DNA of 64,000 nucleotides. Origin: Phycisphaerae bacterium (GTDB lineage Bacteria; Planctomycetota; Phycisphaerae; UBA1845). Shown here one piece after another: positions 1 through 23,480 of this stretch. The stretch is taken from contig CAXXGO010000006.1 in NCBI GenBank assembly GCA_963666835.2, positions 2,240,001 to 2,304,000 on the forward strand. Direction: 5' to 3'. Below the pieces are notes generated by a model that saw nothing but the letters and a program-made list of their open reading frames with translations, was not told the DNA's origin and did no database searches. Both the position numbers and the translations under genes were made by a program. Numbering within the stretch: the first letter of the stretch is position 1; the number at the start of each line of letters is the position of its first letter.

Positions 1-14
1 CACGGGCTCTGGCA

Positions 15-1115
15 TTGTTTACACGTGTGCTGGAAAGCGAAGACGACAAGGTGCAGCGATTATCTGCCGCCAGCAGTTTGGCACAATGGAACGTACGTAG
101 GGGGGCTGCGGAGCTGGTGGAGCTTCTCGACTGTAGCGAGGTGCTCCCTGGACCCACACGAAGGCAGTATGTTTGGGACAGCGCCCTTGATTTGTTTCTC
201 ACGAAGAACGAGCACAAGGGATGGGGGTTTCCGGCAAAGGCGATTAGAGAAAAGATCTCAGCCAGGGCAGCCCTGAATGAGCACGAGAAGTTACAGCTCT
301 ACATCGCGGAGATCAAGAAGTGGTTCACAGCGAACGAGCAGCGTTTTCCGGAGTGGAAACTCGGTGACCCACTGCCTGCGGCGCCGGAGTTACCACCGAT
401 TCCCCCTGGGCCGGAAAGCACGTTACCGCTGAGCGCGGATTTCACACCGCGCCCGACAGTCTGGACAGTGGGCGAGACAGGGGAGGAAGAACTTCTCTGG
501 AAAGGCGAGCGCTATAGGGCGGCGGAGGGAGTCGATCTTCTCATGAATGTCGCCCTGGAACCCGGTAGCGTGAAGGATCGGGCTGTTGCTCTTCGCCGCC
601 TGGAGAGGTTTGCAGGCCGCCTGAGAAATACAGAACGTATCGCTCAACTGTTGGAGCTGTACGAACGACTGTCGGAGCGGTCGGAGAGAGTTGCTGCTCT
701 GTTCTGCTTGGCCTATAGCGCAGATCCGCGAGCGCTCCCTCTGTTTGCAGAAACGCTGGCCAAGGATGATGGAGAGGATCTCCGCCTTCCGGCTGCGTAC
801 GGGCTGGCAGTGTGGAATGTGCGTTACGGGGTCGGTGAGCTTATAGAACTGCTGTCAGTAGCAAAGACGAGGGAAACCGCGATTTTGCTTAGGCAGCTCA
901 ATCAAGGGAAGTCGTGGTGGATGCCGGAGTCGGACCTTTTTGCCATCGCTCGTGTCCCCAACAGAGCGGAGAATGATGCGTTTGATGCGAGCTATGCGGA
1001 ATTGAAGAAGTGGTTCGCGGAGAACGAGCACCGCTTCCCGGAGTGGAAACTCGGCGACCCATTGCCGAAGGTGACGGAGAAAGAACCGGAGACGCAAGGA
1101 TCGGCGACCGAGTGA
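15..1115 (+). CDS. HEAT-like repeat protein with internal duplication, probably 5'-truncated by window edge; immunity candidate for an upstream module
   Basis: Two copies of LAxWNVRxGxxELxELL...AExKKWFxxNExRFPEWKLGDPLP; helical HEAT-like motifs (ERVAALFCLAYSADPRALPLFAETL); frame is open to the window start. Confidence 0.6.
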   Translation: MFTRVLESEDDKVQRLSAASSLAQWNVRRGAAELVELLDCSEVLPGPTRRQYVWDSALDLFLTKNEHKGWGFPAKAIREKISARAALNEHEKLQLYIAEIKKWFTANEQRFPEWKLGDPLPAAPELPPIPPGPESTLPLSADFTPRPTVWTVGETGEEELLWKGERYRAAEGVDLLMNVALEPGSVKDRAVALRRLERFAGRLRNTERIAQLLELYERLSERSERVAALFCLAYSADPRALPLFAETLAKDDGEDLRLPAAYGLAVWNVRYGVGELIELLSVAKTRETAILLRQLNQGKSWWMPESDLFAIARVPNRAENDAFDASYAELKKWFAENEHRFPEWKLGDPLPKVTEKEPETQGSATE

Positions 1116-1216
1116 ATCGATACCCGGCCACGCGGTGCCGGCGACTGGCCCGCCAGTATAGAGGCTCGAGGGATCTGGCGTGGCGTGACCGATTGTAGAC
1201 GTTGACTTATTGCTAC

Positions 1217-1783
1217 CCCGCGGCACCGGGCGGGTGATTCCGTTCGGCGCCGCGGGTGGTTTGCGCGATGCCCGGTGACAGTTCGCGGGCAGTGGCGGAT
1301 GTCTTTTGGCTTCCGTTGTGCCCGGGCCGGGAGTGTTGTGAAGGCGAGACCACGTGCTGCGCGGTGGGCGACGTTTGCTGCGGCGACGAATGTTGTGATG
1401 AGGATCGTTGTTGCGGAAACGGGGAGTGTTGCGCGGAGGAGTGTGAGGAGTGCCTGGACAACGGGACGCTGTCGGGCGGAACGGTCACTGTGGTGCCGCA
1501 GGTAGTGTGCATCGGGCAGACGATCACCTTTACCGTCGACGGCGTGGTCGATAGCGGCGGTCTGAAGCGGGTTGATTGCTCCAGCACCATCGACCTTCCG
1601 GCCGTGGAGCCGAGCTACACGTGGGTGATCACGAAGCCGGACTCGACCACGGAAAGCGGCTCGGGTGCGTCGGCCAACGTCACAGCCGACCAGGCCGGAG
1701 TCTATTCGTGCATCTTCACGGCCACCGCCAACCGCGACTGCCCGCCGGCGGATCGAGACATCGGCCCGGCGACCGGCACGGCG
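1217..1783 (+). repeat. Cassette head repeat copy 1 (hairpin + Cys-rich + Ig-like segment)
   Basis: Near-identical DNA to 5894-6456, 9727-10290 and 19234-19798; homology ends at the codons for PAxGTA. Confidence 0.95.
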
Positions 1784-2455
1784 GATGGCGCGTATCTGGA
1801 CTTGACAATGCCAAACCCTGGAGCGGTTTTGACGCTGGGGAACGATCTCCTGGTTGAGTATGAGGTCGGGCCGTCCAACGGCAGTGGATTCGATTCTGTC
1901 GAACTGGAGATCAGCAACGCCTTCGGTAACCAAGTGTTCGTGTTGGACGGTCTACCATCCACGCCCGGGAATCACTCGGTGGTCTGGGCCGACGGACGTT
2001 GGAACGTGACCTACCCGGGAACGTTCGCAAACCCGAACAACGGGCCTTACGAAATCAAGCTCATCGGGCAGCAGAGCATCTGTCCCGACGACGAGGCGTC
2101 AACATCGGTATTTACGGAACTCGTAATCGAGGCGGACGTCAAAGATGACATGCCCGGTGGCGCGACGGCAACTCGCAGCGCCGGCTTGGATGACATGCTC
2201 GATGCGCTCGAGATCGTGATGAAGCTGGGGACGGTTGAGACGATAATCTCCGGCCCCGCGGGGATTACCGTAACAGGGCCAGACTCGGCCGACAAGCATG
2301 TTAGGGCTGATGCCCCCGTCCTCAATACGCTTCAGGACGGAGCCTACGACGTGTTGTTCCGCAATCTCCGCGACGAGATCGGCAACTTCGCCGACAGCGA
2401 CGGAAACGCGAGCAATGGAATACAGCCAATAACCTTCACATTGGAGCTACGCTGA
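1256..2455 (+). CDS. Polymorphic module 1: Cys-rich head + FlgD-like Ig + bacterial Ig-like C-terminus (start uncertain)
   Basis: CC-doublet head; VELEISNAFGNQV...WNVTYPG...GPYEIKL (FlgD-Ig-like); LQDGAYDV...RDEIGN (Big-like); TGATG overlap with next gene. Confidence 0.65.
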   Translation: MVCAMPGDSSRAVADVFWLPLCPGRECCEGETTCCAVGDVCCGDECCDEDRCCGNGECCAEECEECLDNGTLSGGTVTVVPQVVCIGQTITFTVDGVVDSGGLKRVDCSSTIDLPAVEPSYTWVITKPDSTTESGSGASANVTADQAGVYSCIFTATANRDCPPADRDIGPATGTADGAYLDLTMPNPGAVLTLGNDLLVEYEVGPSNGSGFDSVELEISNAFGNQVFVLDGLPSTPGNHSVVWADGRWNVTYPGTFANPNNGPYEIKLIGQQSICPDDEASTSVFTELVIEADVKDDMPGGATATRSAGLDDMLDALEIVMKLGTVETIISGPAGITVTGPDSADKHVRADAPVLNTLQDGAYDVLFRNLRDEIGNFADSDGNASNGIQPITFTLELR

Positions 2456-4104
2456 TGACGGTGATCAAGAAACGCGCGATCAACATCCGTTCGTCGCGGA
2501 TAATGCGTCGAACACCCCTGGTCCTCTCCATCGCGGCATGCCTCTCTGCCGCGACATGCGACAGGAATGGGCCAAAGACTGAAGCACGGCCCGGGTCCGA
2601 AACCAAGGCGCCGGCCGCACATCCCGAACACCAGGCGTTTCACCACGAGATGACCGAAGCCTATGAGCGTGCAGAGTATACGCGGGCACGAGAGCTTGCT
2701 CGCGAGCATCTGACGCGAGACCGTGAGAGGTGGCTTACCGCCAAGTCGGACAGCGATCGCAATGGGGTGTGGGTGCGGATTCTGGCCGTTCTGAGGTCGA
2801 TGCTGGATTCGGAGCGGTCACTCCCACCGGAAGAGAGGTTCGGGGCTGATCCGGTCCTCACCGGGTTAGTACATGATCTGGTCCTTCAACTCCGAGAGCC
2901 CTCTCGGGCGATCATCGCTCGCGAACCCGAGCGAATGAGAATCATGAAGACGATGTACCATGCGGTAGTACGGGATTGGTTGTTGGTTCGCGCGGAGTGT
3001 GTACCGCGCGTCCAATGGGAAGACTTGTATGCTACATTCCAATCGGAACTGCGTGAGCAGGGATTCGACTCCGCCGACGCGATACTGGCGTGCTCTAACT
3101 CGAGCAGTCCAAAGAACCGTTCGGCGTTGGCCAAGCGTCAAGTCGAAACCGCACGCGGCCCCGTGCCTTCCGCTCCTCAGCATACTGCAGGGTCCGCCGC
3201 CGAAGACGCTCATTCTAGGCGCAGAGTGTTCTGCTACGATGTTAACGATGCCTATGCGCGTGGCGACTATGCGTTAGCTCGCACGTTGGCGCGCCGCCAC
3301 TTGGACCGAAACCGGCAGACTCTGAAGACTGCGAAGTCCGATACGCACCGGGAAGGGGCTTGGCGGAGGATACTCACAGTCACCAGTGCGGTCCTTCACC
3401 ACGAAGAGAAGGCTCCGCGTGCGGAATCGATGGTCAACGACCCTGAGTTTGCCGCAGCGTTGGAGGCGTCACTTCTTGAGATCCGCACGCCTGCGCGCGC
3501 GTTCATTGCCCGGAATCCGGCCCGAACCAAGTTCCTTCACGTGTCCCTTTGTGAAGCTGCGAGAATGTTGCTTGTCCTTCGTGCCGATATGCTGTCACGC
3601 AGTGAATCGGAGGAGCTGTTCTCCACGTTTGGACCGGAGTTGCTTGTGCAGGGTTTCGACCGGCTCGATGCCGTTCTCGCGGCAGAACCACCGGCACCCG
3701 CGCCGGGAGAGAAGATTCGAACCGTCAGCCAACCCGAAGCGGATCGAATTGTCGAGTCGATTCGGCAGTTCTACCGGGGAATGGCCACCAAGAACACCAG
3801 GCTGCTTGGATTGGCAACCGGTCTGCCGCCCGGCGAGTGCGAGGTGTTCCTTGAAGCCTTACGTGCTGAGTTACAGGAGGACGGCTACGTCGACCTCAAG
3901 AGCTTCTCGATCCCCGCGTTACGGAGCGCGGACGTTCTCCTGCGAGAGGCTCCGCGGCAGCCTGACACCTATTCGCTCACAATAGAGGACGTGACCTTCA
4001 CGATGGAGCTTCCGGATGGGCGGCATGTCACGCGGGTTACGAAGAAACTGTTCATGATACGGCTCAACCGTGGCGGGGAATGGACAATCTTGCCACCGAA
4101 GTAG
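2455..4104 (+). CDS. Exported helical protein with internal duplication and possible NTF2-like C-terminal domain (immunity/accessory candidate)
   Basis: Hydrophobic N-terminus LVLSIAACLSAATC (lipoprotein-like); duplicated AYxRxxYxxARxLARxHLxRxR...TAKSD and TFxxELxxQGFDxxDAxLA; translationally coupled to module 1. Confidence 0.6.
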   Translation: MTVIKKRAINIRSSRIMRRTPLVLSIAACLSAATCDRNGPKTEARPGSETKAPAAHPEHQAFHHEMTEAYERAEYTRARELAREHLTRDRERWLTAKSDSDRNGVWVRILAVLRSMLDSERSLPPEERFGADPVLTGLVHDLVLQLREPSRAIIAREPERMRIMKTMYHAVVRDWLLVRAECVPRVQWEDLYATFQSELREQGFDSADAILACSNSSSPKNRSALAKRQVETARGPVPSAPQHTAGSAAEDAHSRRRVFCYDVNDAYARGDYALARTLARRHLDRNRQTLKTAKSDTHREGAWRRILTVTSAVLHHEEKAPRAESMVNDPEFAAALEASLLEIRTPARAFIARNPARTKFLHVSLCEAARMLLVLRADMLSRSESEELFSTFGPELLVQGFDRLDAVLAAEPPAPAPGEKIRTVSQPEADRIVESIRQFYRGMATKNTRLLGLATGLPPGECEVFLEALRAELQEDGYVDLKSFSIPALRSADVLLREAPRQPDTYSLTIEDVTFTMELPDGRHVTRVTKKLFMIRLNRGGEWTILPPK

Positions 4105-4118
4105 AGAGGAGCGTACTA

Positions 4119-5738
4119 ATGACCGCAACAGAACAGCGATGTACGACGCGCGGCAGACGGTGTGGTTGGCTGGGCCTTCCGATAGCACTGTGCCTTTCGG
4201 TTCAGGTCTATGGGGCCACCTATACCGTTACGGGGATTCTCCACACAACCGACGGCCCGAATCCGGAAGTTAACGATGTTCCGGCAAGGTACATCAGGGT
4301 CATCGTCATGGATAAGGACGTTATCTTCGATGACGAGAAGGGAAGAGGGTACACCGGGCTGATCGGCCAGTTCTCGATTACGTTTACCGCTTCGGAGGCA
4401 CCTGATGTCTACATCAACGTCGAGCATGTCGGAATCGGCGTGGGCGGACACCTGGTTGAAGTGCGAACGGACATTGCCGACCCGGCGCCGATTCTCCTGG
4501 AGAACATCGAGGGGATTGTTCATTGGGATATTCCAGCAGGTACGTTGGGGTTAGGTACGTTACGCCTGAGCAATACACATCCCAACATCATAAACCAGAT
4601 GGGTGATGCTGTGCGGTTCCTTGAATCGCACGGGGGGTGGACCATGCCAGAAGATGTCGATGTACAGGCCCCGACGAACTCCGGAGGAAGTGCAGTGGCT
4701 GGTGATGCTTCATACGTGGAGATCTCCGCAGATGACTACGATCATCCGGGCTTTGGTGACGGAGCGTTGTCCAACATACATCATGAGGTGTTTCATTGGG
4801 CGGCATATCGGGCCTACGGCAATAGATGGCCGGCTCCTCCTTGTGACCCACCTGAGCACTATTCCGACACCGAGTCCTGCGAGGCATTTGCGATAATGGA
4901 GGGATCGGCCGAGTACTTTCAGACGATCTCGGCGGAGCCGGATAACATGAACATCCCACCCGGTCCCGAAGTATGGCGGGGTGAGGATGGGACCGGGCAT
5001 GATCACTCGGGCGAGATAGTCGAAGGTGCTTGCGCCTCAGTCATGTTGTCAGTAGCCGACGAACCTGGCGTCCTGGCTGTCCTCCTGAGCGATGCCCCCG
5101 ACTCCATCAGAGAGTTCAAGGACGGATACGTCGCTGACAAAGGGATGACTTCCGTAGCAGTCCGCGACTTCCTAGACCACTGCGCCGCCAACGGTATCGT
5201 ATATACACGAGGTAGGATCGGTGGTTTCGCTCCGGGCGACCCGCCGGACGTGGGTCCGCCTTCTGCGGGGAATCACAAGACGATTGACAACATTGTGTTT
5301 GTCCGCGGTGAGATTGAGCCCTCCATAGTCCAGTTGCCTGCGGGGGACCTTCGCCTTGCGGTCGGTTCCGCGACGATTGCCGCGGACCGGAAGGAGCTGG
5401 GTATCAAGCCGGCACTGCCGGGCCTTGCCGAGGCCAACGCTGGCGGATTCTCTTTCCTCGGTTCGGTGGGCTTTTCGTCACCCTTGATCTGGGACACAAC
5501 AGGTCACGCCGACGGCGACTACGACATCATCGCCCGCGCGCGGAACATCCACGGTTGGGTCGACACCTTTGACCCTGATTTCACCGGTGATTCTCATACT
5601 GCAACGGACTCGACCGAGAAGTGGCTTAAGACGTTGCAGACTTGGTACAACCAGGATGCTGTGCCTGATAACGACGATGAAGGGAAGGTGATTGTCGACA
5701 ACACAGCGCCGACCGTAACGGGGTTTCAACCGCTCTAG
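4119..5738 (+). CDS. Secreted zincin metallopeptidase (HExxH) with Ig-like C-terminal region
   Basis: GAGGAG RBS before ATG 4119; signal peptide LGLPIALCLSVQVYGA; HHEVFHW...MEGSAEYF gluzincin-like motifs; ends VIVDNTAPTVTGFQPL. Confidence 0.75.
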   Translation: MTATEQRCTTRGRRCGWLGLPIALCLSVQVYGATYTVTGILHTTDGPNPEVNDVPARYIRVIVMDKDVIFDDEKGRGYTGLIGQFSITFTASEAPDVYINVEHVGIGVGGHLVEVRTDIADPAPILLENIEGIVHWDIPAGTLGLGTLRLSNTHPNIINQMGDAVRFLESHGGWTMPEDVDVQAPTNSGGSAVAGDASYVEISADDYDHPGFGDGALSNIHHEVFHWAAYRAYGNRWPAPPCDPPEHYSDTESCEAFAIMEGSAEYFQTISAEPDNMNIPPGPEVWRGEDGTGHDHSGEIVEGACASVMLSVADEPGVLAVLLSDAPDSIREFKDGYVADKGMTSVAVRDFLDHCAANGIVYTRGRIGGFAPGDPPDVGPPSAGNHKTIDNIVFVRGEIEPSIVQLPAGDLRLAVGSATIAADRKELGIKPALPGLAEANAGGFSFLGSVGFSSPLIWDTTGHADGDYDIIARARNIHGWVDTFDPDFTGDSHTATDSTEKWLKTLQTWYNQDAVPDNDDEGKVIVDNTAPTVTGFQPL

Positions 5739-5893
5739 AAGGCTGGAATCGGGCTGGGAAGGAGTAAGAAGGGCTGAGAATCCCTGTTAGTGCGGTTTGG
5801 GGGTAGGATAGCCACGCCGCCGCTGACGGTTCGGATGCAAGAGGACGCAGAACGCGTACTGGTCACTATAGCCGCTAATCTAATGCCGCTCCT

Positions 5894-6456
5894 CGGCACC
5901 GGGCGGGTCACTCCGTTCGGTGCCGCGGGTGGTTTGCGCGATGCCCGGTGACAGTTCGCGGGCAGTGGCGGATGTCTTCTGGCTTCCGTTGTGCCCGGGC
6001 CGGGAGTGCTGTGAAGGCGAAACCGTGTGCTGCGCGGTGGGCGACGTTTGTTGCGGCGACGAATGTTGTGATCCGGAACGTTGTTGCGGGAACGGGGAGT
6101 GTTGCGCGGAGGAGTGTGAGGAGTGCCTGGACAACGGGTCGCTGTCGGGCGGAGCGGTAAGTGTGGTGCCGCAGGTCGTGTGCATTGGGCAGACGATCAC
6201 CTTTACCGTCGACGGCGTGGTCGATAGCGGCGGTCTGAAGCGGGTTGATTGCTCCAGCACCATCGACCTTCCGGCCGTGGAGCCGAGCTACACGTGGGTC
6301 ATCACGAAGCCGGACTCGACCACGGACAGCGGCTCGGGTGCGTCGGCCAACGTCACAACCGACCAGGCCGGAGTCTACTCATGCACCTTCACGGCCACCG
6401 CCAACCGCGACTGCCCCCCGGCGGATCTCGAACTCGCCCCGGCGATCGGCACGGCG
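5894..6456 (+). repeat. Cassette head repeat copy 2
   Basis: Near-identical to copies 1, 3 and 4. Confidence 0.95.
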
Positions 6457-8559
6457 ATTGAACTCCTATTGGACGCTCCGCCGGTTTCCTATTTGCCGGA
6501 GAACGGGAACACGGTGCAGTTGACGGCGACGATCGACGGAGGCACGGCCACGGACCGGATTCGGTTCGAGCTTCTTCAGGTCAGCGATTTCCCCGGCGAT
6601 GCCATGAATCACGGGACGCAATCCGGTGCGGATCCGGACTTCAAGTTCGAATCTGCCGGGAACCCGGGCTTCACCATCTCGTCTAATCAGTTGACGGCCA
6701 CGACGAACGCGGCTGTGGCCGGCGCCACGGTGACGATCAGCGCTTATGACTATGGGGCGAGGGCGAAGATCAAGGCTACGTTGGTGAATCTGGGCTGTGA
6801 GTCGGATGAGCGTGATATACCCCAAGATACGGACGGCGATTGGCTGCCCGATGCGTATGAGAACCTCCAGGCGGACAAGGACTCCGCTAGTGCCGATACG
6901 GACGGCGACGGTGTCCCGGACGGGGAGGAGGACGATGATCCTGAGCGCCCGGTATTGGCCAACGCAGGGCCGGATTCGTATCCCGGTGCCCGGACCGACC
7001 AGGGGCTGACCGGCGATGGCCTCGTCGCGTTCGAGGAGTATCGCGGGTTCTTCATCATGGGAACGCATACCCGGACAACGACGGAGACGAAGGATGTTTT
7101 TGTGGGGGTGGATGCTGCTCCGCCGAACGACATCTCCGTTCACCTCGGCTTTCTAACGAACCTGACCGGATTCGATATCCACGAGATCCAAGTTGCCACG
7201 CCACCTGCGGAATGGGCTGGAGCAGGGACTCGTTTCGTAAACTCGCAACGCGCTGGCATTCCGGGCGCAACGGATCAGCGTGCCCTTCGGGTAGTCCGGA
7301 ACGATACGCTTCAGGATGCTGCTGGGAATCCGTCTTTCGGCATAACCAATGAAATCCCCGGACAGTTGACGGTACAGTCGCCCAACGAAACGGATTATAT
7401 CGAGGTCAATGTGCAGTACCACTACTCCGGCCTGTATGGAACATTGCCGGGTACGGACGGAGTCTACGGCACGCCCGATGACACCACGCGGGCGCTGACA
7501 GCAGCCGAAGCCAATGACGCCCTCCGAGAGACCGTTGGGCATGAATGCGGACACGGCGTCCATATTGAACACAACTGGATTGTCGGAGATGAGCATCAGT
7601 TCGCCGAAGGACACGGCGAACCGGATTCGAACAACATCACAACCGGGCCGGACGGAGTCTGCGACACCGCGGCCGTCGGGAACGACGTACAGTTGATCCC
7701 GGTTGGGCAGGGGACGCCGGGTTCGGTCATTATCACAGACGGCGGTGACGGCCTCGATGCCGGAACACTCCTGTTCTTCGATGACATTATTGTCGGAGAT
7801 AATGTCGTTTCGGGGCCGGATGGTATTGCTCAATCCACGGCAGGTGCCAACGATGTGCAAGCGATTCCGGTCGGGCAAGGCTCCCCAAACACCGTCATCA
7901 TCACGGACGGAGGTGATGGTATCGACTCAGGAACGCTGGTTCAGGGGGACGACGTAATCAATGGAAACACCGTTACTTCGGGCCCGGACGGCGTTGCGCA
8001 GTCCACTGCGAGTGGCAACGACGTGCAGGTGATCCTGGTAGGACATGGATCGCCAGGCTCGATCATCGTTACGGGCGGCAGCGACGGGGTCAACTTGGGG
8101 ACGAACGTTCTGGGAGATGATCTCGTCGCAGGAAACACTGTCATTTCTGGCCCTGATGGCATCGCTCAGTCGACGGCCGGCGGCAACGATGTGCAAGCGA
8201 TTCCGGTTGGGCAGGGTCTGCCGAATCAACCAGCGGTGTCAACGGGAGCGGATGGGATCTCCGATTCGGTTGGGGCCGGCGATGACGTTCAACGGATTCC
8301 TTTGGGAAACGGCGAGCCCTACGCGATCGGGATCACGGCCGGCCCGGACGGCGTTTTGCAGGCAACCCCGTGGGGTGACGATACGGTCATTGCCCTGCCG
8401 GCGATAACCACGGGACCGGATGGCATTCTCGATACATACTCGGATGCCCCGGCGTACGGGGTTCCGAGCATCATGACGTCCGACCTGTTATTGCCGATTC
8501 CCAATACGTACAAGAGTGATGAACTTGACCAGGTACGTTTTCATTTGAAGCATCCATAG
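5920..8559 (+). CDS. Polymorphic module 2: Cys-rich head + Ig + DxDxD Ca-binding repeats + metzincin-like protease with repeat insertion
   Basis: DTDGDWLPDAYE, DTDGDGVPDGEE; GDGLVAFEEYRGF; HECGHGVHIEH (7540-7572); SIM Met-turn-like motif (~8467-8475). Confidence 0.75.
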   Translation: MPRVVCAMPGDSSRAVADVFWLPLCPGRECCEGETVCCAVGDVCCGDECCDPERCCGNGECCAEECEECLDNGSLSGGAVSVVPQVVCIGQTITFTVDGVVDSGGLKRVDCSSTIDLPAVEPSYTWVITKPDSTTDSGSGASANVTTDQAGVYSCTFTATANRDCPPADLELAPAIGTAIELLLDAPPVSYLPENGNTVQLTATIDGGTATDRIRFELLQVSDFPGDAMNHGTQSGADPDFKFESAGNPGFTISSNQLTATTNAAVAGATVTISAYDYGARAKIKATLVNLGCESDERDIPQDTDGDWLPDAYENLQADKDSASADTDGDGVPDGEEDDDPERPVLANAGPDSYPGARTDQGLTGDGLVAFEEYRGFFIMGTHTRTTTETKDVFVGVDAAPPNDISVHLGFLTNLTGFDIHEIQVATPPAEWAGAGTRFVNSQRAGIPGATDQRALRVVRNDTLQDAAGNPSFGITNEIPGQLTVQSPNETDYIEVNVQYHYSGLYGTLPGTDGVYGTPDDTTRALTAAEANDALRETVGHECGHGVHIEHNWIVGDEHQFAEGHGEPDSNNITTGPDGVCDTAAVGNDVQLIPVGQGTPGSVIITDGGDGLDAGTLLFFDDIIVGDNVVSGPDGIAQSTAGANDVQAIPVGQGSPNTVIITDGGDGIDSGTLVQGDDVINGNTVTSGPDGVAQSTASGNDVQVILVGHGSPGSIIVTGGSDGVNLGTNVLGDDLVAGNTVISGPDGIAQSTAGGNDVQAIPVGQGLPNQPAVSTGADGISDSVGAGDDVQRIPLGNGEPYAIGITAGPDGVLQATPWGDDTVIALPAITTGPDGILDTYSDAPAYGVPSIMTSDLLLPIPNTYKSDELDQVRFHLKHP
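7636..8430 (+). repeat. Intragenic 56-aa (168-nt) tandem repeats GPDG...NDVQxIPVGxG
   Basis: GPDG codons at 7645, 7813, 7981 and 8149 (168-nt period), followed by shorter units. Confidence 0.9.
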
Positions 8560-8577
8560 AAGTTAGGAGTCACTAGC

Positions 8578-9684: not shown

Positions 9685-9708
9685 CCCCAGCATCAGGGAC
9701 CGTAGTCT

Positions 9709-11703: not shown

Positions 11704-11750
11704 TCGGGCGACAGCGGTTGTTGTATTGTGAGAGGTGCTGCAATCGGAGG

Positions 11751-12008
11751 AAGGGGGTATTGGGTTCGCTGCCCCTGGCTACGGCGGGCTTCGGCCCACG
11801 ATGGCGAACGGGGAACAACGGGCGCGCACGACCTGTCGGAGCAGCCCGCACCCCAAAGCAGCGGCTCGGGAAAGGCCGGACAGCGTCCATGAACCGGGAA
11901 ATCAAACCCGAGAACCTCGCCGCCTGGCCGGCCAAGCCGCCCCAGCGGCCGAGTGCTCAGCCATCCCGGCGGACTGCCGGACAGGGGCAGCGAACCCAAT
12001 ACCCCCTT
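11751..12008. mobile_element. 258-bp MITE-like element with perfect 27-bp terminal inverted repeats and 7-bp flanking direct repeat
   Basis: AAGGGGGTATTGGGTTCGCTGCCCCTG at 11751-11777, reverse complement at 11982-12008; TCGGAGG on both sides (11744-11750, 12009-12015). Confidence 0.8.
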
Positions 12009-12065
12009 TCGGAGGATTGGCCTTCCTTTCACAAGGAGTTGAGGCAACCGCGAAAGGAGATGGAT

Positions 12066-12884: not shown

Positions 12885-13052
12885 GAGACCGCCTAGGGAA
12901 GAAGGAAACCGGGAGGGAGATCGGGAAGGATTGTCGGCGATGCCTCGATATTGCGTGAGGGTCGCTGAGTCCTTCCTGACCCGGCCGGGACCATTCCGGC
13001 CAACGTATTCGGGCAGTCGATTCAGGCTCCGGCCACGTATTACGTTCGCACC

Positions 13053-14912: not shown

Positions 14913-14941
14913 CAGGAGAGAGACTCTTCGGAGATAGAATC

Positions 14942-16177: not shown

Positions 16178-16345
16178 TGCACCGGAAGCCGGCGTGGCGT
16201 GCCCGCATCCGCCCGCCACGCCGGCGTTTCTTGCACGGTCCAACGTACGGAATCGGCGAGATTGGATATCGGCGAAACGCGGCATCCAGCGGTTGCGTCC
16301 GGCCAGATGGTCAGGGCCATGCGGGCAGTGTTCGGAGACGGAAGC

Positions 16346-17581
16346 ATGAGCATGAGACATAAACGTATCATCTGCACCGTAGGAGTCTTCGCGACCGTCG
16401 CCTTGCCGCTGTTCTTGGCATTGACGACGCGAGGAGGAGAGGATTTCGCGCGACTGGAGCGCGTGGCCAGAGCCGAAGGCGACGAGTATGTCCAATTGCG
16501 CGATGCGCTACTTGAGACGCACCCTGAACCGTGGGACGTTGGTGTTGCGGCGGGCCAGTCGTGGGATGCCGGGGTGATGGCGTTCATCCTGAACGCCCGC
16601 CGTGGTGCAAAGGACACGTTTAGGGGTTGGGACGCACTAAGTCCTCGGTACACTGCATCTGGTCGAAGTTATAGCCTCTCTGGCAAGGATTGGACGAGCG
16701 TATGGGCATTCCTGATCGAGAAGATATGGAAGGGGGAGACGGCTAGAGAGAGGGACGGTGCGGACTATGATCTCCAACAATACTGCAGAGAGAGCACCAT
16801 AGAGCTGGGGCATCTGGCCCTCTGGCATGCCATATGGGATGGTTGTGATGATGAGCGGTTGCAGTCTGTTGCGGTGTTCCAGTTGTGTTCGAATCCGGAT
16901 CCATCCACCCAGCCAATTATCGTGGAGCTTCTGAAGGGCGGGAATGGCTCGTTGGACGCGCGTCGACTGAGGGGTCAGTGCATGAGTGGCCTGTGGTACC
17001 GGGATACGGAGCAGACTGTGGACGCTGTTCTCGGCGTCTGGGATGCTCTGAGCAAGACCGGCCACTGGGAATACAGTGGGGCGGGCGTACTGGCCCGCAC
17101 CAGCAGCGAACGCGCCCGGCGGTTTGTCTATGACCTTGTGCTCGATTCTAGTGAGGACGAGAGGCTGCGCGCCGAGACGTTGATGCACTTCTGCCATCGC
17201 CCGCAGCCGGGCGACATCCAAGTGTTCCGCAAGTTCTTTGCGGGACCGGGTTCGGATAAGATGAAGTGGGATGCACTGGGTGGGCTGTACAGGTATCCGC
17301 TCAATGACATTCGCCCGCTTCTTCGTGAACTTCTCATGGACTCGACTGACCCGAAGATGATCGCGAGTGCCGCGTTTGCGCTGAGCAAGGCCGACCTCTC
17401 TACGAAGGATGTGCCCGATGCGACGAAGGCGGAGGATATTGCACTGTTCGAGGAGGTTCTGCGAACAAGAGAGGACTTGCATGAAACGGCTCGCGTTCAC
17501 ATAGACCTGTACATTCGGAGGCTCCGGGCCAAGCCGGGCGATCCGCGGCCGACGCTACCGGATCCTCCGCAGGATAGGTGA
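16346..17581 (+). CDS. Exported HEAT-repeat protein, paralog B
   Basis: TTCGGAGA RBS; MSMRHKRIICTVGVFATVALPLFLALTTRG; same C-terminus LRAKPGDPRPTLPDPPQDR. Confidence 0.75.
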   Translation: MSMRHKRIICTVGVFATVALPLFLALTTRGGEDFARLERVARAEGDEYVQLRDALLETHPEPWDVGVAAGQSWDAGVMAFILNARRGAKDTFRGWDALSPRYTASGRSYSLSGKDWTSVWAFLIEKIWKGETARERDGADYDLQQYCRESTIELGHLALWHAIWDGCDDERLQSVAVFQLCSNPDPSTQPIIVELLKGGNGSLDARRLRGQCMSGLWYRDTEQTVDAVLGVWDALSKTGHWEYSGAGVLARTSSERARRFVYDLVLDSSEDERLRAETLMHFCHRPQPGDIQVFRKFFAGPGSDKMKWDALGGLYRYPLNDIRPLLRELLMDSTDPKMIASAAFALSKADLSTKDVPDATKAEDIALFEEVLRTREDLHETARVHIDLYIRRLRAKPGDPRPTLPDPPQDR

Positions 17582-17749
17582 TGCACCGGAAGCCGGTGTG
17601 GCGTGCCCGCATCCGCCCGCCACGCCGGCGTTCCTTGTATGGTGCAACGTACGGAATCGGCGAGATTGGATATCGGCGAAACGCGGCATCCAGCGGTTGC
17701 GTCCGGCCAGATGGTCAGGGCCATGCGGGCAGTGTTCGGAGACGGAAGC

Positions 17750-18982
17750 ATGAGCATGAGACATAAACGTATCATCTGCACCGTAGGAGTCTTCGCGACC
17801 GTCGCCTTGCCGCTGTTCTTGGCATTGACGACGCGAGGAGGAGAGGATTTCGCGCGACTGGAGCGCGTGGCCAGAGCCGAAGGCGACGAGTATGTCCAAT
17901 TGCGCGATGTGCTACTTGAGACGCACCCTGAACCGTGGGACGTTGGTGTTGCGGCGGGCCAGTCGTGGGATGCCGGGGTGATGGCGTTCATCCTGAACGC
18001 CCGCCGTGGTGCAAAGGAAGAATTCAAGGGTTGGGACGCGCAACGTCCTCAGCCGACAGCCTCTGGCCATAGTTACGACCTCTGCAGCAGGGATTGGACT
18101 AGCGCATGGGCATTCCTGATGGAAAAGACCTGGAAAGGGGAGACGGCTAGAGAGAGGGACGGTGCGGACTATGACCTCCAACAATACTGCAGAAGCGCCA
18201 TAGGGTCGGGTTACCTGGACCTTTGGCACGCCATATGGGACGAGTGCGACGATGAACGGTTCCGCTTGGTTGCGGTGCTTCAGTTGTGTTCGAATACGGA
18301 TCCATCCACCCAGCCAATTATCGTGGAGCTTCTGAAGGGCGGGAATGGCTCGTTGGACGCGCGTCGACTGAGGGGGCAGTGTATGAGTGGCCTGTGGTAC
18401 CGGGATACGGAGCAGACTGTGGACGCTGTTCTCGGCGTCTGGGATGCTCTGAGCAAGACCGGCCACTGGAAATACAGTGGGGCGGGCGTTCTGGCCAACA
18501 ACAGCAGCGAACGGGCGCGGCGGCTTATCCATAAGCTCGTACTCGACCCTTCCGAGGACGAAAAACTACGCGCTGAGACTGTGTGCCGGTGCTGCCTGCG
18601 GCCGCACCCGGGCGACCTCGAAGTGTTCCGCAAGTTTTTTGCCGGACCGGGTTCGGTTAAGATGAAAAGCGATGCACTACGCGGATTGTACAGGTATCCG
18701 CTCAATGGTATTCGGCCGCTTCTTCGAGAACTCCTGGTCGAGTCGACCGACCCTGGGATAATCGCCGACGCGGCAGTGACCTTGACCCAAGCGCACCGGT
18801 GGGCGAAAGACGTGCCGGAAGCGACGAAGGCTGAGGATATCGCATTGTTTGAGGAAGTGCTGCGTACGAAGGAGGGCTTATCGGGCGCTACGCGCGTCCA
18901 CATAGACATGTACATCCAGGAGCTCCGGGCCAAGCCGGGCGATCCGCGGCCGACGCTGCCGGATCCTCCGCAGGACAGGTGA
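17750..18982 (+). CDS. Exported HEAT-repeat protein, paralog C (mosaic of B and A)
   Basis: N-terminal part nearly identical to B, C-terminal part nearly identical to A; spacers 16178-16345 and 17582-17749 are near-identical. Confidence 0.75.
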   Translation: MSMRHKRIICTVGVFATVALPLFLALTTRGGEDFARLERVARAEGDEYVQLRDVLLETHPEPWDVGVAAGQSWDAGVMAFILNARRGAKEEFKGWDAQRPQPTASGHSYDLCSRDWTSAWAFLMEKTWKGETARERDGADYDLQQYCRSAIGSGYLDLWHAIWDECDDERFRLVAVLQLCSNTDPSTQPIIVELLKGGNGSLDARRLRGQCMSGLWYRDTEQTVDAVLGVWDALSKTGHWKYSGAGVLANNSSERARRLIHKLVLDPSEDEKLRAETVCRCCLRPHPGDLEVFRKFFAGPGSVKMKSDALRGLYRYPLNGIRPLLRELLVESTDPGIIADAAVTLTQAHRWAKDVPEATKAEDIALFEEVLRTKEGLSGATRVHIDMYIQELRAKPGDPRPTLPDPPQDR

Positions 18983-19003
18983 TGCACCGGAGGCCGGTGT
19001 GGC

Positions 19004-19233
19004 GTGCCTGATAACGACGACGAAGGGAAGGTGATTGTCGACAACACAGCGCCGACCGTAACGGGGTTTCAACCGCTCTAGAAGGCTGGAATCGGGCTGG
19101 GAAGGAGTAAGAAGAGCTGAGAATCCCTGTCAGTGCGGTTTGCGGGTAGGATAGCCACGCCGCCGCTGACGGTTCGGATGCAAGAGGACGCAGAACGCGT
19201 ACTGATCACCATAGCCGCTAATCTAATGCCGCT
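19004..19233 (+). repeat. Duplicate of ~5661-5890 (3' tail of the zincin gene plus spacer); gene relic at 19004-19081
   Basis: GTGCCTGATAACGACGA...CTCTAGAAGGCTGG...CTAATCTAATGCCGCTCC occurs at both places with few substitutions. Confidence 0.95.
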
Positions 19234-19798
19234 CCGCGACACCGAACGGGTTGATCCGTTCGGTGCCGCGGGTGGTTTGCGATGGGCGGTGCCAGTATGC
19301 GGGCAGTAGCGGAGTTTCTCTGGCGCGTGTTGCGCTGCAGGTCGGGAGTGCTGTGAAGGCGAAACCGTGTGCTGCGCGGTGGGCGACGTTTGTTGCGGCG
19401 ACGAATGTTGTGATCCGGAACGTTGTTGCGGGAACGGGGAGTGTTGCGCGGAGGAGTGTGAGGAGTGCCTGGACAACGGGTCGCTGTCGGGCGGAACGGT
19501 CAGTGTGGTGCCGCAGGTCGTGTGCATCGGGCAGACGATCATCTTTTCCGTCGACGGCGTGGTCGATAGCGGCGGTCTGAAGCGGGTTGATTGCTCCAGC
19601 ACCATCGACCTTCCGGCCGTGGAGCCGAGCTACACGTGGGTGATCACGAAGCCGGACTCGACCACGGAAAGCGGCTCGGGTGCGTCGGCCAACGTCACAA
19701 CCGACCAGGCCGGAGTCTACTCATGCACCTTCACGGCCAACGCCGACCGCGAGTGCCCGCCGGCGGATCTCGAACTCGCCCCGGCGGTCGGCACGGCG
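19234..19798 (+). repeat. Cassette head repeat copy 4 (5' portion more diverged)
   Basis: Hairpin retained; near identity to the other copies from ~19343. Confidence 0.9.
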
Positions 19799-21031
19799 GA
19801 CGAGTTGGTGGAAGTGACCGTTGAGGCAGAGGACGGGCTCATCGATTGCATGGAAGGACGAGTCGTTACGTTCACGGCAACGGTTGAGGGTGTTGTGCCG
19901 GAGAGCCAGAAGCCTATCGAGTACACTTTCCACTTTGAGCACGCGGATGGTACGCCGTGGACCCATACAATCGTGTCGCACATGTTGCAGGTGGACTACG
20001 ATGCCATCGCGTCACAGGTGCCGGAGGGCAATCCGGATCACTTCTTCGATACACCCATCTACGTCGAAGTGCAACTCCAGGCGTGCGATCCCGTGACGTC
20101 GGATACGCTGGATATTCGAGTCTATGAGCTGTGGATCAACGACTTTCGGCACCACGCCAGTGGCCGAGACTGGCAGGTTGTTGTTGGCGAGGCGATCGAG
20201 TATGCCGCCACGGCGTCATCGGACTGCACCAGCTGGGATTGGGATATGGAAGATGGGTTCCCCGATGTGTGGAATCCGTCGGGAGGTAATGCGAAGACGG
20301 GCGCCAACATGGTAATCCCTTTTACCGATCTTCCGGGGCTGGATGGCGATGATTTCGGCGACGAGTATGGCACCGTTAACGTGTTCTGCGAGGACGGGGA
20401 GGGAAACAACCACCGAGTCTACTCCGCCGATCTCGCGCCGCCGAGACTCGCCAAGGTGTTCTCTGATCCGGCGCTGGACACGAGTGGCAGCCCGCCTAAC
20501 CAAAGTTCTCCTCCATGTTGGTTTCTCTTCTGGCAGAATGGCGCATGTCCCGACCTAGATGAGTTCGAATACAGGCACATGAATGCGTACGGAGAGTCTC
20601 AAGTCATCTTCGGCTGGTTCTGGGATACACACATCCTTAGGGTCGGCATCCCAGCGGGCGGGACGCATTATCCCAATGGCCTATTGATCAACGGCGTGCA
20701 ATATGGAGGTGCATCGGGAATCGACTGCTGCGCGGAAGTGGTCGTTCATGAGATGCACCACAACGTCCTCTCCGTCGAAATAAACGACGGAGCGACAGAT
20801 ACTGATCCGGCGAATCCGCCCGCGGCACCGCACATCGGCGTTTGGTTGCCCGATGCCAGAGAACCCGGACTGGGATGCTCGAACGCGAATAAGGACACTT
20901 TCAATCTGGCAATTCTCAAGGCTCCGGTATACATTGGATATGGCGATAATGAGTACTCTGCCGTAACCACGGCACATGGAAGCATCGGTGTTGCAGCGAA
21001 GGACTGGTCTAAAGGAGGAAAGCAATGGTAG
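19367..21031 (+). CDS. Polymorphic module 4: Cys-rich head + Ig + HExxH zincin-like C-terminal domain; no proper start (frame open from 19310)
   Basis: PPCWFLFW, GIDCCAEVVVHEMHH, GDNEYSA, DWSKGGKQW; in-frame TAG at 19307 precedes RSFSGACCAAGRECC. Confidence 0.7.
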   Translation: MCCAVGDVCCGDECCDPERCCGNGECCAEECEECLDNGSLSGGTVSVVPQVVCIGQTIIFSVDGVVDSGGLKRVDCSSTIDLPAVEPSYTWVITKPDSTTESGSGASANVTTDQAGVYSCTFTANADRECPPADLELAPAVGTADELVEVTVEAEDGLIDCMEGRVVTFTATVEGVVPESQKPIEYTFHFEHADGTPWTHTIVSHMLQVDYDAIASQVPEGNPDHFFDTPIYVEVQLQACDPVTSDTLDIRVYELWINDFRHHASGRDWQVVVGEAIEYAATASSDCTSWDWDMEDGFPDVWNPSGGNAKTGANMVIPFTDLPGLDGDDFGDEYGTVNVFCEDGEGNNHRVYSADLAPPRLAKVFSDPALDTSGSPPNQSSPPCWFLFWQNGACPDLDEFEYRHMNAYGESQVIFGWFWDTHILRVGIPAGGTHYPNGLLINGVQYGGASGIDCCAEVVVHEMHHNVLSVEINDGATDTDPANPPAAPHIGVWLPDAREPGLGCSNANKDTFNLAILKAPVYIGYGDNEYSAVTTAHGSIGVAAKDWSKGGKQW

Positions 21032-22014
21032 GCGTGTTCTGTCGACGTGGCGCGTTTTTATGGTATCTGGCGACTGCAGTGGCGCCCATGGGTGGGCTTG
21101 GCCGCGTTGCGGCGGACGGACCAGAGCCTGGGTGCGATCGTCTCGCTCTTGAGTTGGTTTCCCCTGATGTCAAAGCACGCGAGGCGGCACTCGCCGAGTT
21201 GAATCGCGTGAGACGTCGGTCGAAGGGTGAATTCGACTTAGAACATAAGCTCCTGCTCTTTAAGCAGATTGTGGCATTGGACTCGCCAAACTACGCGTAC
21301 AGGGCGACCTGCTTCCTCGCAAAACTACCCGTGGATGATGAGGTTCTGACGTTGGCAAAGCGGGCCGTTGCGGACGAGAAGTGTGGATTGAGTCTGCTGA
21401 TCGGCAGTCTGGCGTACGCCGAAGGACATGCGCCGGAGGAGTTCGGCAGCTTCTTCAGAAGTCGCAAGTACGAGGAACATGACAAGGCAGTTTTGGCGCT
21501 GTTTGCAGCTTCGGAGGCGGTCCAGGAAATCAGACATGCGCACTTCGGGAGCTTGGTTGATAGCTACCTGACGTGGCAGCCGGGAGACGTGGCCGACACC
21601 GAGAACCCGTTCCGGCCGGCCATCCTGCGCGCCGGTAACTCCATCGTTCCCGAATTGCATGCCGCCTTGAGCACGTGTGGGCAAAACCGGGGATCGGCTA
21701 TCAAGGTCGTGTGGATACTGGGAGAGATCGGTAGTCCTGAGAGTTTCGACCTGTTACTGACTGAGTATTTGGCGGCCCCGTCTCACAGAGTTGGCATCTC
21801 CCTCGGGGCATGCCTCGGTAGCCTTAACGTGGAGCGACTTTTTGCGGAGATAGACGATACGCGGGTGCTGAAACAGCTTCTCAGTGACGTTTATGGGCGT
21901 GATTGGGGGCGTGTCGAGAGTTTCGCGTTGCCTGCAATAAGGAACGATATGATCAAGAACCTGCAAGTGATACGGGAGAACTGCAAACGCCGGAGTGTAC
22001 CGATGTTGGGCTAG
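21025..22014 (+). CDS. Exported HEAT-repeat protein, immunity candidate for module 4
   Basis: ATG overlaps the end of module 4; signal-like N-terminus; SPDVKAREAALAEL, VWILGEIGSPESFDLL. Confidence 0.7.
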   Translation: MVGVFCRRGAFLWYLATAVAPMGGLGRVAADGPEPGCDRLALELVSPDVKAREAALAELNRVRRRSKGEFDLEHKLLLFKQIVALDSPNYAYRATCFLAKLPVDDEVLTLAKRAVADEKCGLSLLIGSLAYAEGHAPEEFGSFFRSRKYEEHDKAVLALFAASEAVQEIRHAHFGSLVDSYLTWQPGDVADTENPFRPAILRAGNSIVPELHAALSTCGQNRGSAIKVVWILGEIGSPESFDLLLTEYLAAPSHRVGISLGACLGSLNVERLFAEIDDTRVLKQLLSDVYGRDWGRVESFALPAIRNDMIKNLQVIRENCKRRSVPMLG

Positions 22015-22160
22015 AGCGAACAGTGAGCTGGAGTATCGGTTCATAGGAAGGTCGCGACTGCTGCGTGCGGCGCGATCGGTTGTGGGCGGATGGACATGGT
22101 CCGTCGCTCGTCGGACCGACGCAGTGAGCTGTCGGACGAAGGCCGAAGGAGGAAAAAGGA

Positions 22161-23480
22161 ATGCTAGTATTCAGTATGGTACGGATCGCAGCCCGGTTGC
22201 GATTGTCCATGATTGTCACGGCTATGCTCGTGGTTATCGCGAGCGCGCACGCTCAGCAAGCGAAACGGATGACCGCGATGGCGTGTGATGACGCACGCGT
22301 GGCGCAGATCAATGCATGGGACGAGAAGACGATTCTGCGCGAGTTGGCCCGAATCCTCGGCACTCAATCCGGCGCCGAGGTCGACTGCAACCGGGTCGTG
22401 CTAAGAAGGGTCCGCGATATGAGCCTCGTCGCCGCTGAGGAGCAGTTAAGGACGTTCGTTGGCGAAGTGCGTCCGCCCTCCAAGTCGCACATTCGCGGTG
22501 AGAGCGATCCGCGATGGGCGATTAAGTATGATGTGATGGCTACCTTGCTGAGCTTTGATTTGGACAGGCGCGGGCTCGACAGTATCGAGGATCGCGCTGC
22601 ATACCTGTTTGCAGCAGTGGAGAAAAAGACGACGACAAAGAGCGATGTGATTAATGCCGAAATCATTTTGCTGCGAGATTGTGCGTCGGGGTTGACGGAC
22701 GTACTACTTAGAATGATCGACAGACCGGCTGGCGACGTGCTGCGGACTGTGGCGCTTGACGTTGGGCGAAATTCGGAGGATCTACGATTCGAGGATGAGC
22801 TTCTGGTGCGAATCGACGACATCCGAACGACCGACCCGGCTATGTATCGCCGGATGCTGGGCGTGCTTGGGGCGATCGGCAGCGAGAGGTCGGTTGCGTA
22901 CTTCGCCGGTCGTTTGAATGGTATTGACGGCGAAGAGAGGAGTGATGCGGCCAGCGGTCTGCGGCTTCTCGCGGCTCACGGGCGAACCAAGCAGGTGCGG
23001 GCGGCCGCCGATGAGGCACTCGCTCAGGAGGCTCCGGCCGCATCGGTGCCTGGGCAAGATAACCGAGATGGGGAGACGCCGGGGGAAGCCGACAGTCCGA
23101 GACGCGTCACGAAGGAAGAGAAGAAACCCAAGTTTGCACGGCCCGAGGAGGTCGGGGAAGACCTGTCCGGGTTGCCTTCGTCGGAACTACTGCGCCGGCT
23201 GGTTCGATCATCCGACAGGATTGAGCGCCGGAAGGCGGCGAAAACGCTCGGTGACAGAGAGCTCGGCAAAACCGGGGCAAAACCGGGGACAGTCAAAACC
23301 GGGGACAGTCACCGATTCACCGGGTCCTTTCCGCATGACCGTCGTGTCTTCTCCGTTGGCGCGCGGCTTCCTAAGGCGGCCCACGGGTATCGCCACGGCA
23401 CGCGAACCACCTTCGCCCGGACCGGGTTCCGCTCGCCGTACCGCAGCCCGCGCCACAGGTGCAACTCGTCCATAAAATAG
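22161..23480 (+). CDS. Exported HEAT-repeat protein, 3' end disrupted by REP/RAYT relic at ~23268
   Basis: AAGGAGG RBS; signal peptide ending ASAHA; LGVLGAIGSERSVAYF; a new HEAT unit (ERRKAAKTLGDRE) runs straight into repeat-derived KTGAKPGTVKTGDSH. Confidence 0.65.
   Translation: MLVFSMVRIAARLRLSMIVTAMLVVIASAHAQQAKRMTAMACDDARVAQINAWDEKTILRELARILGTQSGAEVDCNRVVLRRVRDMSLVAAEEQLRTFVGEVRPPSKSHIRGESDPRWAIKYDVMATLLSFDLDRRGLDSIEDRAAYLFAAVEKKTTTKSDVINAEIILLRDCASGLTDVLLRMIDRPAGDVLRTVALDVGRNSEDLRFEDELLVRIDDIRTTDPAMYRRMLGVLGAIGSERSVAYFAGRLNGIDGEERSDAASGLRLLAAHGRTKQVRAAADEALAQEAPAASVPGQDNRDGETPGEADSPRRVTKEEKKPKFARPEEVGEDLSGLPSSELLRRLVRSSDRIERRKAAKTLGDRELGKTGAKPGTVKTGDSHRFTGSFPHDRRVFSVGARLPKAAHGYRHGTRTTFARTGFRSPYRSPRHRCNSSIK

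Follow-up and report, generated by a model that had tools for sequence, protein, structure and literature searches.

A candidate Sec-dependent polymorphic toxin/immunity-type locus with exchangeable tails on a cysteine-rich scaffold in a Phycisphaerae bacterium

In CdiA and Rhs/WapA-type systems a full-length toxin gene is followed by orphan modules, each with a C-terminal toxin region and an immunity gene, and the constant stretch ends in a demarcation motif, VENN or PxxxxDPxGL. Type VI secretion system (T6SS) effectors that act in the periplasm (amidases, lipases, peptidases) have immunity proteins with signal peptides. The cassette logic of toxin-immunity systems and Sec-dependent polymorphic toxins with cassettes have already been described (Zhang, de Souza, Anantharaman, Iyer and Aravind, 2012; PMC3482391), and the main text of that survey lists HEAT repeats as immunity proteins in planctomycetes, lists zincin toxins as well, and calls secreted or lipoprotein immunity proteins exceptional; the term 'arginine deiminase' is absent from it. 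Our literature search returned nothing linking Phycisphaerae, or deiminases, with toxin/immunity pairs (matches for arginine deiminase together with polymorphic toxins were unrelated by title or abstract), and nothing on cysteine-rich, dockerin-bearing secreted proteins in Planctomycetes. Here we analyse a gene array that occupies the first 23.5 kb, a run of same-strand open reading frames (ORFs), of a 64,000-nucleotide stretch of a Phycisphaerae bacterium (GCA_963666835.2, contig CAXXGO010000006.1; G000:C6:2240001-2304000 in our numbering of this 6.0-Mb, 7-contig genome), called the window below. We propose, with a probability of about 0.65, that the array belongs to a Sec-dependent polymorphic toxin/immunity-type locus whose scaffold is new. 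The proposal is based on the layout of the locus, the diversity of tails across the family, the co-variation of tails with partners and footprints of recombination, all of which we observe directly, and on a predicted binding of one partner to its tail. An initial annotation of the window had described a constant head, swappable tails and exported immunity-like partners, and each computational check that we ran came out as that interpretation predicts.

Four direct copies of the head stand in register at 1325, 5998, 9832 and 19340 and are 95–100% identical over 300 nt, with further repeat blocks of the copies beginning at 1195, 5868, 9702 and 19210. The core head block (Table 1) retains 82–100% identity per 40-nt bin, mostly 90–100%, and in an alignment that includes the flanks the identity is down to background level no more than about 30 nt from the PAxGTA junction. 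Copies 1–3 have ~105 nt of extra common sequence on the 5' side, where copy 4 is degenerate (60–85%); the length of ~560 bp originally given for the head is correct for three copies, and the fourth, with its degenerate 5' end, measures about 450 bp. Beyond the junction each head is fused to an unrelated C-terminus, as had been noticed: BLASTP alignments between head-bearing ORFs stop at or within 30–70 residues of the junction, and no tail matches another. All four cassettes lack a signal peptide and have in-frame stops upstream. A full-length signal-peptide gene, which the initial annotation proposed to look for upstream of the window, is found there: a whole-genome search with the head revealed a fifth copy of the identical type 1.2 kb before the window, inside an ORF of 1109 residues lying 430 nt upstream of it. 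The N-terminal part of this protein contains a Sec-type signal (hydrophobic core ending ...PQVEA), acidic repeats and a conserved N-domain, and is followed by ~250 residues of CC-doublet repeats (CCGDPDPCCGSSDP...), the head and a 250-residue tail 0 with the sequence HELTH (HExxH); no Pfam family matches the protein at E≤0.01. The signal-peptide HEAT gene of partner 0 follows 21 nt after its stop. Together with the signal-less cassettes, this upstream gene defines a locus made of a full-length gene with its partner, four cassettes of head, tail and partner, and a truncated protein-arginine deiminase (PAD) tail with three paralogous partners, which is the classical layout of an expressed gene plus orphans. 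The five head copies of this one genome carry five unrelated tails.

The head DNA bears the marks of recombination. Within the 445-nt block 37 sites are biallelic, and all four gametes are present at 42 of 120 informative site pairs. The database protein P0001, probably from a very closely related genome, has the sequence of cassette 1, without a difference, in the first ~118 residues of the head and that of cassette 3 from there on, across the junction and to the end of tail 3 (100% identical); it is a clean chimera whose crossover lies within the head. A duplicate of the last 22 codons of ORF 4080-5738 and of the intergenic DNA behind them lies 5' of cassette 4. We also compared contigs of four public sequencing runs with window 1-20000 at 90% likeness. 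These assemblies break at the head repeats and most joints have short, uninformative sides (21–65 nt); in one contig of run X6 (depth 2.1, side 255, 13 ambiguous letters) the flank of cassette 4 is connected to tail 2, no more than a hint that a related strain has its cassettes in another order.

A phmmer search with the 187-residue head against 1.84 billion representative sequences found 169 proteins at E≤1e-3, 102 of them at ≤1e-10 and 18 at ≤1e-30. The head is internal or N-terminal in these proteins, is followed by 0–1411 residues, and ends in an R-x-C-x-P motif in 122 of 133 representatives. Two types of trunk precede it: an N-domain with a Cys stalk, as at the window locus, or a long stalk of dockerin, Big_5, Glucodextran_B, CarboxypepD_reg, PKD and Big_1 domains placed before the Cys repeats, which Pfam reads as Dicty_CTDC. 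We mapped 28 loci (the window region, seven genome regions, three public-contig loci and 17 metagenome loci) with 38 head-bearing ORFs, of which 11 are full-length, 20 short and orphan-like, and seven cut by contig ends; tandem arrays of modules with partners are also present in L043 (three modules), L045/46, L049/50 and G370. Among sampled relatives the head was found in 5 of the 24 genomes searched from the family of the window genome and in 0 of 16 from other families of the order; in a class-wide sample, 3 of the family's 22 genomes had it and none of the remaining 378 did. A pattern scan of public contigs gave five loci and is not a census, having missed genomes seen by the other search; the head-bearing contigs are labelled Planctomycetota, Phycisphaerae or Phycisphaeraceae, plus one metagenome-assembled genome labelled Gemmatimonadota. 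An AlphaFold2 model of the head from 13 sequences (predicted local distance difference test score, pLDDT, 91.9) shows short Cys-rich hairpins packed against an immunoglobulin (Ig) sandwich. Among PDB structures, Foldseek ranks PKD domains from clostridial collagenases first (E 3e-3, template modelling score 0.74 on the target), with no match at E≤1e-3, and the modelled fold is a PKD-like, Ig-type β-sandwich. Neither Pfam nor NCBIfam gives anything above cut-off for the head (Ig_2 and PKD remain below it), and no match to a described toxin trafficking domain, the outcome that the initial annotation had named as contrary to its proposal, appeared in Pfam, NCBIfam or the PDB.

The head is not tied to a fixed tail, which would likewise have spoken against exchange. 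The 121 tails of at least 120 residues (113 from database proteins, eight from mapped loci) fall into 36 groups by single linkage. Pfam recognises an enzyme domain 3' of the head in 15 of the 113 scanned database proteins, the other 98 having no recognised tail domain: there are three PAD domains (P0027, P0038, P0086), six metzincins of Reprolysin/M10 type, two type I phosphodiesterases, and one each of Peptidase_M15_3, a Hedgehog-N-like domain, phospholipase A2 and a weak eCIS_core. The headless PAD module of the window, already recognised as such, is the sole PAD locus in the genome and matches Pfam PAD (PF03068) with 209.6 bits against a gathering cut-off of 25, over profile positions 2–348 of 395. 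Over its full length it aligns with what follows the head in P0027 (54%), P0086 and P0038, in all three of which PAD is fused directly behind the head; since the window ORF starts inside the preceding (pre-PAD) domain, it represents a decapitated cassette, and we read the three HEAT-like paralogs at 14942-18982 as its expanded partner set.

For the other tails the clues come from motifs and distant relatives. Tail 1 shares 62% identity with the C-terminal end of head-bearing P0020 (1659 residues), and tail 3 is 46% identical to the cassette tail of G370 (L035), its GDCQSI motif suggesting a putative Cys enzyme. The labels 'metzincin', 'Ig-only' and 'Cys enzyme' given earlier to window tails rest on motifs, and Pfam, NCBIfam and PDB sequence searches returned no match for them: NCBIfam has no family for any array protein, nothing below E 0.04 was found in the PDB for tails 0, 2, 3 and 4, and a permissive Pfam scan of the tails gave sub-threshold PKD, FlgD_ig and eCIS_core only, including a PKD-like stretch of tail 4. 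Matches of tail 3 in the ESM Atlas are all under 0.9 and serve as leads only (a 20%-Transglut_core cluster and a DUF4280 cluster, both 0.76). The HExxH motif of tail 0 with its downstream glutamate (H198, E199, H202, E208) is invariant in 7 of 7 relatives, and tail 0 (17.3 bits, E 0.0055) and its relative P0059 (20.3 bits, E 6.5e-4) both approach the eCIS_core/DUF4157 zincin family (PF13699) from below its 22-bit cut-off. Homologues of tails 0 and 3 also occur in 12 proteins without this head. Six such headless-type relatives (P0153 and P0157-P0160, by Dicty_CTDC or by eye, and more weakly P0152) have DGNPCT-type Cys repeats and, where the sequence was read, a different Ig connector; P0161 and P0162 carry Big_2 domains instead. 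The head thus appears dispensable for these two tail families, whose presence behind another connector is what mobile toxin modules would be expected to show. We considered whether an exosortase sorts the toxins and rejected this, since their tails lack a PEP-CTERM-like hydrophobic end.

Each module is followed by at least one ORF of signal-peptide-like type, in line with the initial annotation. All ten partner-like ORFs of the window have, by eye, a hydrophobic, signal-peptide-like N-terminus, and the module stop overlaps the partner start at the two expected places, cassette 1/partner 1 (1256-2455/2455-4104) and cassette 4/partner 4 (19367-21031/21025-22014). Across all loci 30 of 34 partner-like ORFs are signal-peptide-like against 57 of 148 other ORFs of the same loci, under a crude hydropathy rule for which two of the four partner misses are ORF-start artefacts or borderline. 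That the partners are often HEAT-repeat proteins was borne out for partner 0 (HEAT_2, 38.7 bits, above cut-off), with three more (14891, 16199, 22161) below the cut-off. Partner 0 is a tandem duplication (window 306-398 and 996-1088) of a ~250-residue unit that stands alone in other loci, and the duplicated immunity-like units in partner 0, and apparently also in partner 1, may provide a broader specificity.

The partners also co-vary with the tails. A same-strand gene starts at −130 to +200 nt in 29 of the 34 modules with complete tails, and after three near-duplicates (tail at least 90% identical) were dropped, 26 modules remained for the count, across which tail and partner families map almost one to one. 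Sixteen of the 22 module pairs with the same tail also share the partner family, a value reached in none of 10,000 partner shuffles (highest 7), in agreement with what the initial annotation expected of such a tabulation. The co-varying pairs are old, with tails 39–86% and partners 28–82% identical. The tail 0 family is accompanied by the partner 0 family in 4 of 4 loci (homologues in L038, L039 and L046), partner 3 is 36.5% identical to the gene 3' of the homologous tail in L035, from another genus, and the same architecture and pairings recur at 27–66% identity in other genera and metagenomes.

Prediction of a cognate pair, also proposed at the outset, places the partner on the catalytic motif of the tail. 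We modelled tail 0 (7-row alignment) together with residues 50-272 of partner 0, its first HEAT unit (4-row alignment), and obtained an interaction prediction score from aligned errors (ipSAE) of 0.78 in all three runs, against 0.00 for the best of three controls; this mark is reached by 116 of 157 solved complexes and 2 of 215 mismatched pairs, counts that are rough with the custom alignments used here. The runs agree in at least 67% of contacts and the pLDDT of the partner is at least 85. The confident interface on tail 0 comprises residues 202 and 204-208, which include the second histidine of HExxH (H202) and the invariant glutamate (E208). Since these are invariant residues of the catalytic motif, partner 0 is modelled over the catalytic site, which supports a possible role as an inhibitor or immunity protein of tail 0. 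We know of no similar complex.

The locus resembles several described systems without coinciding with any of them. It shares with the Sec/'type II secretion' class of polymorphic toxins, as presented in the main text of Zhang et al., 2012, a trunk that stays constant while its C-terminal enzyme varies, a candidate immunity gene directly 3', arrays of standalone cassettes of tail and partner, and a model of recombination at the 3' tip; here the same trunk carries differing C-terminal domains and standalone cassettes lie 3' of the full-length gene. In contrast, its trunk (CC-repeat stalk and PKD-like head with an RxCPP junction) matches by Pfam none of the markers in that text, no processing peptidase is recognised, and essentially all partners in the family have export signals, whereas secreted immunity proteins are rare among the systems surveyed there. 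As in CdiA and Rhs systems, the full-length gene is accompanied by orphans that keep a constant stretch, with a sharp demarcation motif, RxCPP...GP. However, Pfam finds on the 1109-residue protein no TPS (two-partner secretion) domain, FHA repeats or VENN as in CdiA, which uses type V secretion, there is no CdiB-like transporter gene adjacent to it, and the payloads of the family are envelope-type enzymes rather than nucleases. The absence of Rhs/YD, VENN, PAAR, LXG, Hint and MafB markers stated in the initial annotation was reproduced: Pfam gives no match to RHS/YD or PAAR in window proteins or the 113 relatives among the best five families per protein, Pfam and NCBIfam do not find MafB-N (DUF1020), LXG or Hint in the window and full-length proteins, and since neither database has anything above cut-off for the head or the 1109-residue protein, these lack TPS, VENN, RHS, PAAR, LXG, Hint and MafB-N markers. 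Envelope-directed enzymes (M15/Hedgehog-N, phospholipase A2) with exported partners, predicted for one pair of our family to occlude the active site, resemble the T6SS pairs, but no T6SS marker is on or beside the protein, which has a Sec signal and in which the enzymes are C-terminal tips of a stalked protein backed by silent cassettes. The weak alignment of tail 0 and P0059 to the HExxH core of eCIS core/DUF4157 proteins ('PVC-metallopeptidase' in the main text of PMC3482391) is a further likeness, although the zincin of our family is C-terminal and no contractile injection system genes are nearby. The suggestion that this is a distinct class holds for the scaffold, the payload set and the exported partners, which are new, and not for the kind of system, which that survey had already described.

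In the mechanism that we propose, the full-length protein would be exported via Sec, as its signal indicates, and its Cys stalk, probably disulfide-bonded outside the cytoplasm, would present the tail. The exported partner would cover the active site of the tail in the periplasm or at the surface of the producer, as the predicted binding suggests, and would thus protect the producer and its kin. The four cassettes and the decayed PAD cassette with its three partner paralogs, which stand 3' of the presumably expressed gene, would be silent, and the ~445 bp of near-identical head DNA would act as a recombination handle through which a cassette with its partner replaces the expressed tail, consistent with the footprints. 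The payloads (M15/Hedgehog-N-like peptidases, phospholipase A2, zincins, PAD) belong to kinds of enzyme with extracytoplasmic action, so their targets probably lie in the envelope or on the surface of neighbouring bacteria. A bolder version, which we hold tentatively and at less than even odds, is that of a lineage-restricted weapon of this Phycisphaerae family: a Sec-exported, disulfide-rich 'spear' (CC-repeat stalk and PKD head) with interchangeable envelope-attacking enzymes, including the first antibacterial PAD, HEAT immunity proteins plugging the active sites, and an arsenal shared over at least two connectors and two loci, independent of known secretion-system markers.

Several points weigh against the toxin/immunity interpretation. 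We infer that the protein is exported, that its tails are toxic and that the partners confer immunity, and we likewise infer how tails are switched, what they target and how they would pass the outer membrane. Pfam identifies no known delivery machinery or marker on the 1109-residue protein or its neighbours, which are glycosyltransferases. Four of the five tails of the window locus have no family-level identification, catalytic motifs being the sole clue, and the AlphaFold2 model of the catalytic part of tail 3 (3-row alignment) has a pLDDT of 28 and was left out of fold searches. Six of the 22 same-tail pairs lack a common partner cluster at the thresholds used, and the co-variation could reflect plain co-inheritance of neighbours, the more so as the modules are related and their kinship inflates the test. 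The complex prediction expresses the confidence of a model for one cognate pair, not a measurement. Moreover, metzincins, phospholipases A2 and phosphodiesterases are typical of nutrient-scavenging or host-directed secretomes as well. It is conceivable, if unlikely in our opinion, that the array encodes secreted or surface hydrolases for feeding or for interaction with hosts or algae, each with a periplasmic inhibitor or chaperone, as known for serralysin-type proteases with their periplasmic inhibitor, and that the variety of tails reflects a range of substrates. The payloads, PAD among them, are classic extracellular enzymes, the N-terminal stalks contain dockerin, Big, PKD and carbohydrate-associated Ig domains, the locus lies within an exosortase/exopolysaccharide cluster, and binding at the active site as predicted is equally compatible with an inhibitor. 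Yet cassettes devoid of signal peptide and trunk are not exportable as they stand, a fixed set of enzymes needs no near-identical recombination handle with mosaic footprints, and tail-specific partners in a one-to-one relation, along with an expanded set of partner paralogs next to a PAD tail in decay, are typical of conflict systems and not of digestive secretomes.

The silent cassettes call to mind a different function, antigenic or phase variation of a surface protein, as in pilE/pilS-type systems, with the tip swapped against phages, predators or grazers and the downstream genes acting as tip-specific helpers of folding or export. One expression locus with promoterless silent cassettes and a common handle is indeed the layout of antigenic variation, and an Ig/PKD head on a long stalk would suit a surface protein, but we consider this improbable: many tails are recognisable enzymes, catalytic motifs are conserved in them (as in the relatives of tail 0 and in the PAD), and a partner whose predicted place is on the catalytic site is more readily understood as an inhibitor than as a chaperone. 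As for decaying debris of tandem duplication, in which the heads would be pseudogene fragments and the neighbouring signal-peptide genes functionally uncoupled, it would account for the degenerate 5' end of the cassette 4 head and the truncated PAD module. All four cassette ORFs (399–879 residues) and all partners are intact, however, the head DNA is near-identical while the flanks are unrelated, and architecture and pairings recur at a distance in other genera and metagenomes, so that we find this explanation very hard to credit.

Table 1. Features of the array, in window coordinates.
Feature	Coordinates	Strand	Description
Partner 0, 3' part	1-1115	+	Gene start 409 nt 5' of the window; 507 residues; signal peptide and two HEAT-like units
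Orphan cassette 1	1256-2455	+	Head block 1327-1772 and tail 1 (1811-2455), matching no known family
Partner 1	2455-4104	+	Lipoprotein-like signal (IAAC), apparent internal duplication, no family match
Extra signal-peptide protein with HHEVFH (HExxH) motif	4119-5738	+	No family match; second partner or independent secreted zincin
Orphan cassette 2	5920-8559	+	Head block 6000-6445 and tail 2 (6481-8559), HECGHGVH motif, 168-nt tandem repeats 7780-8216
Partner 2	8578-9684	+	Signal peptide, no family match
Orphan cassette 3	9709-11703	+	Head block 9834-10279 and tail 3 (10318-11703), conserved GDCQSI motif
Partner 3	12060-12884	+	Signal peptide, start at MDMNIL
Headless, 5'-truncated PAD tail	13053-14912	+	Pfam PAD, E 1e-61
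Three tandem paralogous signal-peptide HEAT-like genes	14942-16177, 16346-17581, 17750-18982	+	63–84% identical to each other
Orphan cassette 4	19340-21031	+	5'-degenerate head (block 19342-19787) and tail 4 (19817-21031), VVHEMHH motif
Partner 4	21025-22014	+	Signal-peptide-like, borderline hydropathy 1.72; start overlaps cassette 4 stop
Final signal-peptide HEAT-like gene of the array	22176-23480	+	No tail of its own; HEAT_2 19.6 bits, below cut-off

Some further features of the array and its surroundings (Table 1) should be mentioned. The HHEVFH protein has no homologue in any related locus; it is not a cassette and not obviously a partner, and its 3' end has been duplicated along with a head copy. 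Public run X3 has a contig (side 255) in which 265 nt are missing at window 11743-12009, behind the stop of tail 3 and ahead of the probable start of partner 3; this favours the more downstream start, at 12060, for that partner. Two 97-nt direct repeats, 98% identical and separated by 113 nt (window 23405-23614), lie at the end of the last HEAT-like gene and form the downstream edge of the array. Around it is an exosortase/exopolysaccharide cluster (window 23958-28262 and 31850-63997; L006:10003-16027), with EpsI, an EpsH exosortase, a TIGR03790 protein, a 1478-residue TPR protein and a heparinase-like lyase on the 3' side, together with a Wzz/tyrosine-kinase-like protein, Poly_export and many glycosyltransferases, and with glycosyltransferases on the opposite strand on the 5' side; since such genes flank both sides, the array looks like an island inserted into the cluster. 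On the minus strand at L006:58-2796 there is a 912-residue ORF with MmeI-type methyltransferase/TRD domains and an IS200-like Y1 transposase domain.

The genome contains another locus of this design (L060, G000:C5:178000-197500, minus strand, 3219-17308). Its full-length gene encodes 1259 residues with a different connector and a tail of the Reprolysin-like family, and has a block in common with the window-adjacent gene from about −60 to about +780 nt, mostly 84–100% identical (72% in one 50-nt bin); 3' of it are signal-peptide genes and then two short cassettes with their own common leader. At the long-stalk loci L014:2220-6949, L018:1669-6257 and L019:2-4528, three conserved genes lie 5' of the toxin gene, encoding a dockerin-containing protein, a paralog of the Big_5 and dockerin N-terminus of the toxin, and a protein of ~780 residues with an IPTL-CTERM (exosortase-type) signal, which is thus a conserved neighbour in three loci other than that of the window. 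Together the three genes may constitute a set for surface anchoring or export.

To our knowledge, bacterial antagonism in Planctomycetota is almost unstudied. If the toxin/immunity reading is true, polymorphic toxins would gain a new carrier architecture and a set of envelope-directed payloads whose immunity proteins are all exported, and with them many uncharacterised pairs of enzyme and inhibitor, including PAD with HEAT partners and several family-less zincins. The locus would also give a clean example from nature of how cassettes switch by means of a 445-bp handle.

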